Below are positions 22,728 to 59,707 of a stretch of DNA of 64,000 bases, piece after piece; positions within the stretch are counted from its first letter, which is position 1; each line of letters begins with the position of its first letter. The translations under genes were made by a program, and so were the position numbers. The stretch covers positions 186,001 to 250,000 of the forward strand of contig JASTWF010000180.1 of assembly GCA_030390025.1 (NCBI GenBank), given 5' to 3'. The notes below the pieces were generated by a model. The model saw only the letters and a list, made by a program, of their open reading frames with translations, was not told the DNA's origin and did not search any database. Source of the stretch: Squalus acanthias (Eukaryota).

Positions 22728-22766
22728 AGTTTCTGTACGAGTGTTTAACTGGTTTCCATCACTGTG
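22728..22766 (-). other. 23-RSS of the inverted family-E V
   Basis: Minus strand CACAGTG + 23 nt + ACAGAAACT. Confidence 0.92.
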
Positions 22767-23325
22767 GGTCCCAGGGCACAGTAATAAACTGCAGTATCGG
22801 TCAGCTGCAGCCCCCAGATGGTTAAACTGGTGAATTTAGTGGCGCTGTCGAGTTGTGCTGAAAAACGGGTTTGGCCAAAATGTGTTTTATCTTCAGAACC
22901 GCTAACGTATTTAGTCAGAAGAAACTCGCGCTGTGTTTCAGGGTGTTGCCAATAACATTATATATAATAGCCGCCGCCCCATGTAGTATTATAGGTGCAG
23001 TTTAGAGTCACCGCTTCTCCTTCTGTCTTGACTCCCGAAGACAGCGGCTGAGTGCCAGAATCTCCAAGACTCGGATCTGAAAAACATGTTCAAACAGGAA
23101 ACGATCAGACCGGCGGGTTTTTAAAATTCAGATTTAATGAATGTAGGAAATGAGAGTAAAGATATAATGTGTGTTGTTCACCATCATCATCATCACCATC
23201 ATTTTACGAACATAATAATAACATCTGGGTTACAGCAGTCAGGGGGAGAATGGGTTTTTACTGGGAAGCAAATACTTACTTAGAAGTGATATAATGATGA
23301 GGTGCGGTCCGAGACGGTTCCACAT
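22767..23325 (-). pseudogene. Inverted family-E V pseudogene, full length (leader 23280-23325, V exon 22767-23076); absent from the ORF track
   Basis: Leader MWNRLGPHLIIISLL; V reads NPSLGDSGTQPLSSGVKTEGEAVTLNCTYNTTWGGGYYI*CYWQHPETQREFLLTKYVSGSEDKTHFGQTRFSAQLDSATKFTSLTIWGLQLTDTAVYYCALG; stop at 22958-22960 and Trp41>Cys. Confidence 0.9.
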
Positions 23326-24627
23326 GACGCTCCCTGAGTCTGTAACTCTGCAGTCCGGGAAATCCCCTGTCGGAGCAGAAATACAGATCCCCAACCCACA
23401 GCACTGCGGATCCAACCAATGCTAAAGAGGGAACAGCGGAAACAATCTCTCCAATAACACAGGGCTGGCAATGCGGGTCAGAGCGAGAGCAGCAAACGGA
23501 AGCTGTGGGCGGGGCTGCCGCGGGCAGTGATGTCACAGGCAGGATCCATCTGTAAGAAACTGTCGCACTGTCCTCACTTAATCTGACAATGATCCCTTTC
23601 TACTTTCTTTGAATGAAACCATCCCAATGAAACAAATCCCAGCACTTATGACCTGCCGCTGGCGGATGTGCGAGTGTTTTAATCAGCACCCTGTCCCAGT
23701 GCCTGACTTCAGTGACATCTAGCAGAGTGTCAGACAGTTCATGCATTAAAACATATCCCGCAATATTATTTTAAATTGAACTGTTGAAGGAGAACAGGGT
23801 AGCACGGGTTCAAACTGTAAAATGTAATTATAAGACAATATCTTCTTCACACATGGAAAGTGGTGAATGTATGAAACAAGATTGCGGATAGAGTGGTGGA
23901 GGAACATGCCTAAGTATCATTTAAGGAAAAGTTTGAGGCCACATTAAGACTGGGAGGGTAGTATCTCTCTGGATCGATGTGACAATACGGGCCGAATGGT
24001 TTCCATCATTCCGATTGATCTTGTGAACTGGAACAAGGCAGGAGTTGTACCTTGTAGTTACATGTAGTGGCCACCAGAGGACAGTGGGAGTATGTGTTCA
24101 CTTGGTTTCACTGTCGGGGCTCGTCACAGACTGAAAACGTTGTTCAGTAAATTTATTGAAGAAAAGGCATTAAAGAAACAATTCAGAAACAAAGGCATTG
24201 CTTTGAAATTGATCTCTGTGTGTTTATGGTTTATTACCATTTTTATTGAGATTTATCGATGTTATTATTACTGTTGATATGTTGTAAATATTAGCAAGAA
24301 AAGTCCACACTCCATCCTTGTAGGGAAGGAGACGGGTTCAAAATATCAAGGCAGATTTTAGGACTGGTATCCGGAAATTCTTCTTCACACACAACTTTAT
24401 CAATGTGTGGAATAAACTTCCAGTTAGAATGGGGGAGGCAATACATTGGAATCATTAGATGTTACAACGGAAGGCGAGAGAAAGGATCTCTCTGGATGAC
24501 GGAGCCATCCCGAGAAGAAGCAAGTAGCTCAGCTCATTTGTCATTAGCTCGTGAACTGCAACGTTTCGGGAATTGGCGTCACAAATTGCACCACGCAATT
24601 ACCAGTATTCGAGACAAGAGGGCAGTG

Positions 24628-25682
24628 TGAAACTGTGAGCGGCCCGGTGTGAGCTCAGAGACAGTGTGAGCTGGTGTCAGTGAGAAACACTGAGTGTGAG
24701 CGGCCCCGTGTGAGCTCAGAGACAATGTGAGCTGGAGTCAGTGAGAAACACTGAGTGTGAGCGGCCCGGTGTGAGCCCAGAGACAGTGTGAGCTGGTGTC
24801 AGTGAGAAACACTGAGTGTGAGCGGCCCCGTGTGAGCTCAGAGACAATGTGAGCTGGTGTAAGTGAGAAACATTGAGTGTGAGCGTCCCGGTGTGAGCTC
24901 AGAGACAGTGTGAGCTGGTGTCAGTGAGAAACACTGACTGTGGTCGGACCGGTGTGAGCTCAGAGACAGTGTGAGCTGGTGTCAGTGAGACCACATTTGG
25001 AATATTGTGTGCAGTTCTGGTCACCTCACTATAGGAAGGACGTGGAAGCATTGGAAAGAGTGCAAAGGAGATTTACCAGGATGCTGCCTGGTTTGGGGGG
25101 GAGGTCTTATGAAGAAAGATTGAGGGAGTTGGGGCTTTTCTCTTTAGAGCGGAGGAGGATGAGAGGCGACTTAATAGAGGTTTATAAGATGATGAGGGGG
25201 ATAGATAGAGTGGATGTTCAGAGACTATTTCCTCGGGTAGAGTCAGCTGTTACAAGGGGGCATAGCTATAAGGTGCATGGGGGGGAGATATAGAAGGAAT
25301 GTCCGAGGTAGATTCTTTACTCAGAGAGTGGTTGGGGTGTGGAATGGACTGCCTGCTGTGATAGTGGAGTCGGACACTTTAGGAACTTTCAAGCGGTTAT
25401 TGGATAAGCACATGGAGCACACCAGAGTGACAGGGAGTGTGATAGCTTGATCTTGGTCTCGGACAATGCTCGGCACAACATCGAGGGCCGAAGGGCCTGT
25501 ACTGTGCTGTACTGTTCTATGTTCTATGTTCTATGTGTCAGTGAAACACTGAGTGTGGGAGGCCCGGTATGTGTTCAGAGACAGTGTGAGCTGGTGTCAG
25601 TGAGAAATACTGAGTGTGGGAGGCCCGGTGTGAGCTCAGAGACAGTGTGTGCTGGTGTTAGTGATAAACACTGAGTGTGGGC
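24628..25682. repeat. 61-bp tandem repeat upstream of family-F V (about 6 + 2 copies), split by a CR1 insertion
   Basis: Unit GTGTGAGCGGCCCGGTGTGAGCTCAGAGACAGTGTGAGCTGGTGTCAGTGAGAAACACTGA; period 61 from positions 24661, 24722 and 24783; two copies also at about 49785-49910. Confidence 0.88.
24989..25534 (+). mobile_element. 5'-truncated CR1 with intact 3' tail and target-site duplication
   Basis: RPHLEYCVQFWSPHYRKD...; (GTTCTAT)n tail; TSD GTGTCAGTGA at 24979-24988 and 25535-25544. Confidence 0.92.
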
Positions 25683-25860
25683 GTCCCGGGCTGGGTAATC
25701 CCCGAGACTGAGCTTGTTTCGTAAGTTAGACAGGAAGAAGTCTCTGAGTGAAGCGGGAGTTTGTCTCTTTGTTAATGCTGCTGAATATAATATCGGTGTC
25801 CTGGCTCTAACCAAACCTTCGTGTGAAACATTTTCAGCCTCCTATTCATCTGATCGGATA

Positions 25861-26194
25861 ATGCTCCGGATTTACAGAGTTTCACTGCTGATTTACACTC
25901 TGATCTGCACGGATGTGAGCGGTGAAGGTGAGGTGACGCAGCTCCCTCGGCGGGTGGTTGTTCGTGAAGAGAGAATCGTGTCCAACAACTGCACCACTAT
26001 CGCTGCGTTTAGCGTCGTGCGCTGGTACAGACAGAACCAGGATCAGACCCTCCAGCACCTGGTGATGGCCACAAGCGGGGCCGATCAACACGGGAGGATC
26101 ACTGCTTCAATCGGGGGAGGCAATAAACTCAGTGCCCTGACTGTGAGAGCCGCGCGAGTGACAGACAGCGCCACCTATCTCTGCGCCGTGAGCC
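25861..26194 (+). CDS. TRAV: TCR alpha-type V segment, family F copy F1; single exon with leader fused to V; apparently functional
   Basis: Continuous ORF MLRIYRVSLLIYTLICTDVSG-EGEVTQ...NC...WYRQ...DSATYLCAVS followed by a canonical 23-RSS. Confidence 0.85.
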
Positions 26195-26233
26195 CACAGT
26201 GCAACAAACAGGCGGTGAGTCCGCACAGAAACC
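26195..26233 (+). other. 23-RSS of F1
   Basis: CACAGTG + 23 nt + ACAGAAACC. Confidence 0.95.
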
Positions 26234-27030: not shown

Positions 27031-27529
27031 ATGCGGAACCGACTCGCACCGCTCCTCATCGTTATATCACTTCTCAGTAAGTATTTCCTCACCAGTAAAA
27101 ATACATTTTTTCCCCTGACTTCTGTAACCCAGATGTTGCTATTGGTAAAATGATGATGATTCTGTTGATTGAGGTGCTGGTGTTGATAGTGATGATGATT
27201 ATGACTATTACTATTTTTTATGTTAGAATGGAGCCACCAAGACACCATGGAACAGCCTGTACCTGAATTGACGGTTGAGGAGGAAAGTCATGTCACACTA
27301 ACCTGCACCTTGGAAGCAAGCGACAGAAGCCATTACTTGTTCTGGTACAGTCAACAACCCGGGAAGCTTCCACAGTACGTGATTCGTCTGATCGGAGGGA
27401 TAGTAAAGCGGAACCCCGACTTCACTGATCGATTTAATTCTACGTTTAATGCAAGTACCAAGATTACCGAGCTAACGATCGGCAAAGCCCTGATCTCCGA
27501 CACCGCCGTGTATTTCTGTGCCATGAGCC
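27031..27529 (+). CDS. TRAV/DV: TCR alpha/delta V segment, family D, the only complete copy (leader 27031-27076, V exon 27227-27529)
   Basis: Leader MRNRLAPLLIVISLL; GTAAGT/TTAG intron; open V KWSHQDTMEQ...LTC...WYSQQPG...DTAVYFCAMS; RSS CACAATG-24-ACAAAAACC at 27530-27569. Confidence 0.88.
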
Positions 27530-27700
27530 CACAATGCCACAGAGATATAGAGGATCCCGTACAAAAACCCACACTGAGTGTTCAAGATAGTGCTCACCAG
27601 AGGGCGCTCTCACTCCGCGAAACGGAAGCGATAATTCAGCCTCCACAATGAGAAGCAGAAGGACCTTCTTAAAAGGGCTGCAAAACACAAAACTCAACAT

Positions 27701-50090: not shown

Positions 50091-50352
50091 ATGCTCCGGG
50101 TTTACAGAGTTTCCCTGTTGATTTACACTCTGATATGCACGGACGTGAGCGGTGAAGGTGAGGTGACGCAGCTCCCTCGGCGGGTGGTTGTTAGTGAAGA
50201 GGGAATCGTATCCATCAACTGCACCATTATCGCTGCGTTTAGCGTCGTGCGCTGGTACAGACAGCACCCGGATCAGACCCTCCAGCATCTGGTGATGGCC
50301 ACAAGCGGGACCGATCAACACGGGAGGATGAGTGTTTCAATCGGGGGTGGCA
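50091..50352 (+). pseudogene. Family-F V copy F2, intronless, truncated in FR3 and fused to the family-C upstream region
   Basis: MLRVYRVSLLIYTLICTDVSGEGEVTQ...WYRQHP...SIGGGN then switches to NELNRPLVTALLLNLCLTSFQEI*; no YYC or RSS. Confidence 0.85.
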
Positions 50353-50647
50353 ACAATGAACTGAACAGGCCCCTGGTTACCGCTCTCCTTCTCAATCTCT
50401 GCCTCACTTCATTCCAAGAGATATAATCAGCTATGTTTCTCATAATACTGGCGGCTGTGATGGACACCGAGTGCTGGTTTATATTTAAAATTCACAGCTC
50501 AGCAGATTGATGAAAAGAGTTTGTTCAGGGAATCAGAGATATCCATGTAATGGACAGTTGGGTACATGGGAATATACTCTCTGAGAGATAGACGCAAGTT
50601 TAACTCGATTCTGTATAACCTCCTGTTCTTCTGTTCCCCTATCTTAG

Positions 50648-59263: not shown

Positions 59264-59707
59264 ATGTGTTTCCCTGTTTATTTCACTGTGGGATTGGCGC
59301 TCTCTGTGCTGTGTAAGTACATGTTGAAGCCGAGTAGAAAACACAACAACAGGTCCGGTTAGTGGAGTGGATATTTGTAAATGTTCAATTTCTCTTCCAG
59401 CCAACAGCGTTTGCGGCGAATCCGTGCGTCAAGACTATTCGAACAGGACGGTGCCAGAAGGAAAAACGGTTACGCTGAATTGTAGTTTTACAACAACAAA
59501 TACAAACCCTGAGCTTTCCTGGTACCGGCAGCTTCCCGGTCAGGCCCCAGTAAACGTGTTGTTTATCAACAAATACGACTCGTTCCCAGCCGACTTCGCC
59601 AAGGACCGTTTCACAGCAGAGCTGAGCGCAGAGGCGAGTGCGGTTCGGCTAAGAGTTTCTGGGGCGGAGCTGTCAGACGGCGCCGTGTATTACTGCGCTC
59701 TGAGACC
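59264..59707 (+). CDS. TRAV/DV: Family-B V B6: intact leader, splice sites and frame, but RSS heptamer destroyed (leader 59264-59312, V exon 59401-59707)
   Basis: MCFPVYFTVGLALSVL / SNSVCGESVRQ...LNC...WYRQLPG...DGAVYYCALRP; heptamer position reads AGCAGCT (59708-59714), nonamer AGAAATACT (59738-59746). Confidence 0.8.

Follow-up and report, generated by a model that had tools for sequence, protein, structure and literature searches.

An old family of single-exon leader-V segments in a TCR alpha-type locus of Squalus acanthias and its likely origin by loss of the leader intron in place

Introduction

How does a germline V segment that carries an intact 23-RSS come to be without the intron that splits the leader of its neighbours? 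Recent work on sharks presents the split leader as a universal feature of antigen-receptor genes (PMC12227049). Single-exon V genes are on record elsewhere, among them the precedents that an initial annotation of this locus had named: the marsupial TCR-mu Vj is pre-joined (PMC2275272), and chicken TRAV1 is single-exon in 45 of 48 genes, as are most TRGV1 genes (PMC10972964). For TCR-mu Vj, retro-processing was proposed, and its authors name a germ-line rearrangement combined with deletion of the intron as the other possibility (PMC2275272). A single-exon TRAV has been described as peculiar to chicken V-alpha-1 (PMC10972964). We found no description of a single-exon V in cartilaginous fish in the openly available full-text literature; the portions consulted of papers on the catfish, axolotl, salmonid, newt and duck loci and on nurse-shark TCR-alpha make no mention of one in those animals, and a term search of the elephant-shark supplement returned none.

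The segment considered here begins at position 25861 of a 64,000-nt stretch of Squalus acanthias DNA (G000:C911:186001-250000; the window). The initial annotation had attributed its fused leader to precise intron loss through reverse transcription of a sterile V transcript.

Results

The window copy and its locus

The features of the window discussed below are as follows.

25513..25690, no strand: tandem satellite block co-duplicated with the gene (TRF mask; 171-348 nt before the ATG; 30/32 loci)
25784..25791, +: TATA-like AT-rich stretch, candidate promoter (77 nt before the ATG; a similar stretch aligns across copies)
25833..25837, +: acceptor-like TTCAG, probably incidental (23 nt before the ATG; in register in 47/50 copies)
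25861..25912, +: equivalent of leader part 1, 17 codons + 1 nt, predicted signal peptide n- and h-regions (ATG in 48/50 copies)
25912..25913, +: junction, the site of a phase-1 intron in sister families (comparison with L033 and L043)
25913..26194, +: leader part 2 and TCR alpha/delta-type V region (Pfam V-set, PDB, Atlas)
25928..25933, +: cryptic donor-like AAG|GTGAGG (3/50 copies)
26195..26233, +: 23-RSS, CACAGTG-23-ACAGAAACC (exact match)
27031..27569, +: intron-containing partner V of a different family, co-duplicated with the fused gene (22/30 loci)
50091..50357, +: paralogue carrying the fusion, truncated and lacking an RSS (sequence comparison)

The description of an intronless leader-V segment was confirmed. 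From the ATG, an unbroken plus-strand frame (25861-26194) runs through a hydrophobic 17-residue leader directly into DVSG and the V domain, ending in DSATYLCAVS; leader codon 17 is ACG and is followed across 25912/25913 by G|AT. The RSS is the sole exact match in the window, and none of 100 shuffles contained one. Codons 44 and 108 encode Cys and codon 55 Trp, the V-set residues Cys23, Trp41 and Cys104 are all present, and the Pfam V-set score is 28.7 bits (cut-off 26). All 60 PDB matches listed for the V region were named T-cell receptor alpha, NKT or TCR chains, the best among them being TRAV12-3 (E 4.7e-12), and the top Atlas clusters were likewise TRAV. The predicted leader has a basic n-region, a hydrophobic core (8-residue mean 2.6) and small residues ahead of the mature end; cleavage of the signal peptide would fall after VSG.

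The annotation had also reported the same fusion in a paralogue at 50091. This is correct as to the fusion (plus strand, ACG G|AC); the paralogue nonetheless ends near codon 89 and lacks both the second Cys and an RSS, which had gone unmentioned. A nearly exact twin of the window copy (L002, G000:C911:144406) lies 67.5 kb upstream, with an identical protein and 4 mismatches in 550 nt; either the segment was duplicated recently or the assembly contains it twice. Both members of this pair have Asn two residues ahead of Cys23, a position occupied by Ile in 36 of 38 intact copies, and both carry the donor-like AAG|GTGAGG. Because of these two features, the window copy may function less well than its siblings.

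The fused V shares contig and strand with J segments and an alpha-type membrane exon. Six exact matches to a 12-RSS-FGxG J pattern lie on the plus strand at 690-777 kb of the contig (backward control, 0). Near 784 kb, also on the plus strand, lies L077, presumably a TCR-alpha-type TM exon judging by its Arg/Lys pattern, which is that of the TCR-alpha membrane segment. A search with PF09291 when placing the locus gave no match. DAD1 flanks TRAC in bony vertebrates; here it maps to G000:C8:78893176-78895029, a contig other than that of the V, J and C-alpha-type sequences.

A family of fused copies

Searching the genome with the protein of the window copy (150 of 707 candidates scored, places at >=73% identity counted) revealed at least 50 places carrying the family: 41 on C29, 5 on C911, 2 on C449 and 2 on C3620. 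Haplotypes or assembly duplication may account for some of these. Of 50 candidates returned by a DNA query without the leader, 40 were scored; each fell at one of the same places, with no intron-bearing family member among them. The leader is collinear with V in all 50 copies, none of which has a leader intron, and the junction reads ACGG|AT in 44, ACGC|AT in 4, AGGG|AT in 1 and ACGG|AC in 1. The reading CACAG|AT in relatives, named in the annotation as the sign of a mutated splice acceptor, is absent from all 50 copies of this genome.

Most of the family appears intact: 48 copies have the ATG, 40 an open frame, and 38 an open frame together with a 23-RSS. Nucleotide diversity among 29 copies (L013 left out) is highest in CDR1 (pi 0.145; leader, 0.033; FR2-FR3, 0.035). 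The leader pN/pS of 0.65 within the genome is not significant (6/18 variant codons synonymous, p 0.37). Two open copies, L005 (C911:169848) and L015 (C911:87312), have a 15-nt deletion that leaves 8 nt of RSS spacer, as well as Asp in place of the Tyr before Cys104; they are probably unable to rearrange.

Every fused copy sits among other V segments on one of the four contigs. A split-leader partner V lies ~1.3-1.4 kb downstream of the fused ATG in 22/30 loci, a satellite block ends ~170 nt before the ATG in 30/32, and the longest A run within 500 nt after the RSS is at most 8 in 50/50 copies, leaving no poly(A) trace. Since partner and satellite accompany the gene and no longer A run follows the RSS, the family seems to have expanded by tandem duplication of a cassette and not by repeated retroposition. 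The satellite has a unit of ~61 bp (window 24620-24990 and 25513-25690), and the unique sequence upstream of the fused gene resembles a degenerate continuation of this unit.

Split-leader sister families

The annotation had stated that every other family with a recognisable leader has a phase-1 intron after it. We examined 14 further V segments that bear an RSS on the plus strand: nine have a recognisable 15-residue leader and a phase-1 intron of 150-744 nt, two have an acceptor and no leader that we could find, two are broken and one gave no frame. The leader is split as well in one more V (acceptor at 59400). Among the families of this genome, the nearest (L031-L039, 52% identical over the V domain) contains a phase-1 intron of 173-174 nt in 8 of 9 resolved copies and of 262 nt in the ninth.

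The position of the lost intron can be read from two of these relatives, L033 (intron 174 nt) and L043 (476 nt), both phase 1. Since in both the sequence after the intron starts with AT and keeps the register of the fused gene, the alignment indicates that no base is missing on the V side of the old intron site. Leader length differs among families (17 versus 19 codons), which confines the evidence for exact loss to the V side; the fused leader, at 52 nt, compares with 46-58 nt for split leaders here.

One apparent second collinear family (46% identity, matching from residue 4) was rejected, as it has a normal intron with an AT-rich end that translates as hydrophobic. The AT-rich tract at the intron end of L031-L039 translates leader-like and misleads six-frame searches (compare P0018), and probably gene predictors too.

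Relatives in other species

An exhaustive HMMER search over 1.84 billion representatives identified two proteins, P0003 and P0004, collinear with the window protein over positions 1-110; a widened profile also found relatives. A word-index search with the single window protein found nothing, and one with the family profile against longer proteins found no full-length chain. P0004 is a gene model from Chiloscyllium punctatum, for which three further models were recovered (P0160-P0162). Homologous leaders of 17-18 residues occur in these four bamboo-shark models (18 in the three further ones) and in P0003; the bamboo-shark models are known as proteins, so the homology of their leaders is seen at that level.

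P0003, a JGI/IMG ORF, is 63% identical; a single frame runs from its leader through V and the heptamer across a 23-nt spacer to the nonamer, and past V it matches the translation of the sequence downstream in the window. JGI/IMG gene calls of this kind contain no introns. P0003, known from the protein alone, is thus a second genome carrying the fusion; two metagenome scans for its DNA turned up no relative. Met1, Arg3, Leu9, Leu14 and Thr17 are invariant in a seven-row leader alignment, and start Met and hydrophobic core are retained in relatives at 55-63% V identity. The invariant positions fit a translated leader, as would be expected.

The nearest named relatives are cartilaginous fish, the closest being split-leader families of the same locus and models from Callorhinchus and Scyliorhinus. 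We placed the family in a maximum-likelihood tree of 56 V-domain rows and 93 columns, its rows hand-picked from the hits and 7 dropped beforehand. All nine rows of the fused type fall into a single clade (support 99/99), nested in a chondrichthyan group (93/85) with split-leader families and Callorhinchus models. Since the window family and P0003 lie on opposite sides of the clade's first split, a single intron loss at its base would be the simplest reading.

Discussion

Origin of the fusion

Our data indicate that the fused V family is real, old and lineage-wide. The explanation we prefer, with moderate confidence in it as a whole, is one old leader-V fusion produced by ancestral intron loss in place via cDNA and followed by tandem duplication. 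Under this explanation an ancestral V gene would have lost its leader intron cleanly, the intron-free copy being templated by cDNA of the gene's own spliced, unrearranged germ-line RNA; the RSS would survive such a conversion, and the fused gene would then have multiplied in tandem. Precise loss in place is likely, and reverse transcription is a plausible route to it. The part of the annotation's proposal that concerns a real, old and heritable fusion is upheld, while its reverse-transcription step has left no specific trace and is drawn from general knowledge of vertebrate intron loss. The family lacks the features of a retroposed pre-joined gene, in that its members keep the RSS, are unrearranged, have no poly(A) and are not dispersed. 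The intact RSS and the missing poly(A) speak against retroposition of a rearranged mRNA, and would fit cDNA conversion and a microhomology deletion in genomic DNA equally.

That deletion is the strongest competitor, and we regard it as a possible though rather unlikely course of events: the intron would have been removed at the DNA level, by end-joining via a short repeat at both splice sites, with no RNA intermediate. The junction, clade and intron-site evidence accommodates it equally well, and L043, where CAG closes both first exon and intron, shows a usable microhomology. V genes are not expected to be transcribed in the germ line, which we count in its favour. The nearest sister, L033, speaks against it, as its first exon ends in CCGT without such a repeat and the fused junction reads ACGG; exact loss by end-joining is, moreover, regarded as rarer than cDNA-mediated loss in vertebrates. 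In line with the cDNA route, shark germ cells rearrange Ig genes, so V loci can be accessible there (PMC2193156).

The fused leader might instead not descend from a first exon. A new ATG close to where the old intron ended could have turned the intron's pyrimidine- or AT-rich tail into a signal peptide, the acceptor decaying and the first exon being lost. An in-frame YACAG would leave Thr followed by a codon starting with G at the junction, and this is found in most copies and in P0003, P0004 and P0160; 9 of the 14 bases before the junction triplet are pyrimidines, within the 8-13 of real acceptors (a set filtered at >=8); and the intron end of the sister family translates into a similarly hydrophobic peptide, with a BLOSUM score of 12 compared with 0-4 for the first exon. 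Several observations weigh on the other side. AG stands at the junction in 0/50 copies, the true first exons of L043 and L044 also finish in xCA or xCG plus one base, the leader has a GC content of 46% compared with 17-21% for the sister intron end, its length lies within the split-leader range, and no family-wide relic first exon was found within 1.5 kb. It also aligns gap-free with a mammalian TRAV leader, that of human TRAV12-3, up to the junction. Scoring did little to separate the two sources: against a profile of tetrapod leaders, with training leaders chosen by similarity to the fused family, the fused leader scored 2.2, real first exons scored -3.1 to 6.4, and 2 of 13 translated intron ends scored as high as the fused leader; and the fused leader was not significantly closer to the first exon of any sister family than to intron ends, z being 1.3 and 0.7, respectively, for the nearest family. 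On these sequence comparisons we disfavour a leader born from the intron end and consider it improbable.

It is very improbable that the gene is still spliced, with an upstream exon joined at the TTCAG 23 nt before the ATG, whether the intron then lay in the 5' UTR or the upstream exon coded for another leader. The TTCAG is in phase 1 with the ATG frame as well as in register in nearly all copies, and a branch-like CTAAC lies upstream. Equally good sites, however, precede ordinary first exons in 7/9 controls. With respect to a coding leader, an ATG is missing from the upstream 330 nt in 12 of 33 copies, and the interval between TTCAG and ATG contains an in-frame stop in one copy and a frameshift in another. 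Flanks beyond the satellite recur in no more than 12 of 33 others, and the copies have no coding exon in common upstream; a UTR intron would not alter the leader-V fusion.

If the fusion arose by intron loss in place, as we favour, the fused V would be transcribed from a promoter directly upstream and joined by RAG to a 12-RSS J segment, and its transcripts would need J-C splices only.

Comparison with known systems

Like ordinary chondrichthyan TCR alpha/delta V genes, the fused family has a V-set domain, a 23-RSS and a translocon position upstream of J and C; it differs in having no split leader (PMC12227049; PMC5931798). Marsupial TCR-mu Vj also lacks the leader intron, but in opossum TRMVj the germ-line V is already fused to D and J, whereas the shark family is unrearranged and keeps its RSS (PMC2275272). 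Germline-joined shark Ig light chain genes are another heritable receptor-gene change in shark germ cells, and there the situation is reversed: V and J are joined and, according to a figure legend, the leader is split (PMC2193156).

The closest likeness is with chicken TRAV1, in which leader and V form one exon, the RSS is kept and genes are numerous (PMC10972964). TRAV1 recurs in tandem pairs with an intron-type V ~2 kb away, the TRAV1/TRAV2 pairs (PMC10972964), and the shark fused V is paired likewise; our tree gives no sign that the two kinds of pair are homologous. Chicken TRAV1 genes mostly have weak RSS scores and are rarely expressed in spleen, whereas 38/50 shark copies have a near-consensus 23-RSS (PMC10972964). 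The QVQQ N-terminal motif is a feature of avian TRAV1 (PMC10972964) and is absent from the fused copies, which read EVEQ, EVKQ or EVTQ.

Whether the shark and avian genes form one lineage, a check by tree that the annotation had called for, received a partial answer. An avian V with the TRAV1 motif (P0163, from Numenius; 34% identical) falls far from the fused clade in the best tree, yet common ancestry was not rejected when this one long-branch row, labelled by QVQQ alone, was forced into the clade (delta lnL 14.3, AU p 0.083). The tree leads us to favour an origin independent of the avian single-exon V, and the fused family is probably an independent instance of the type known in chicken TRAV1. 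We see little chance that the two families go back to one cDNA-mediated loss in a jawed-vertebrate ancestor; if they did, an intron-free TCR V lineage would have persisted for >400 million years beside split-leader V genes, and V genes would have been transcribed and reverse-transcribed in early vertebrate germ cells.

The existence of an old, mostly intact, 50-copy elasmobranch clade suggests that V genes can do without the leader intron and that its loss probably happened more than once. A V-gene finder requiring a splice acceptor would overlook this large shark TCR-alpha family. Somatic hypermutation acts on shark TCR-alpha (PMC5931798), and the adjacency of fused and split V in one duplicated cassette offers a natural test of the effect of the leader intron on V usage, expression and somatic hypermutation.

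The window also contains, on the minus strand at 22766-23330, a V that is inverted and broken. The leader exon closest to it, ~200 nt upstream, has the type of another family; this V is possibly a chimera from a duplication breakpoint.
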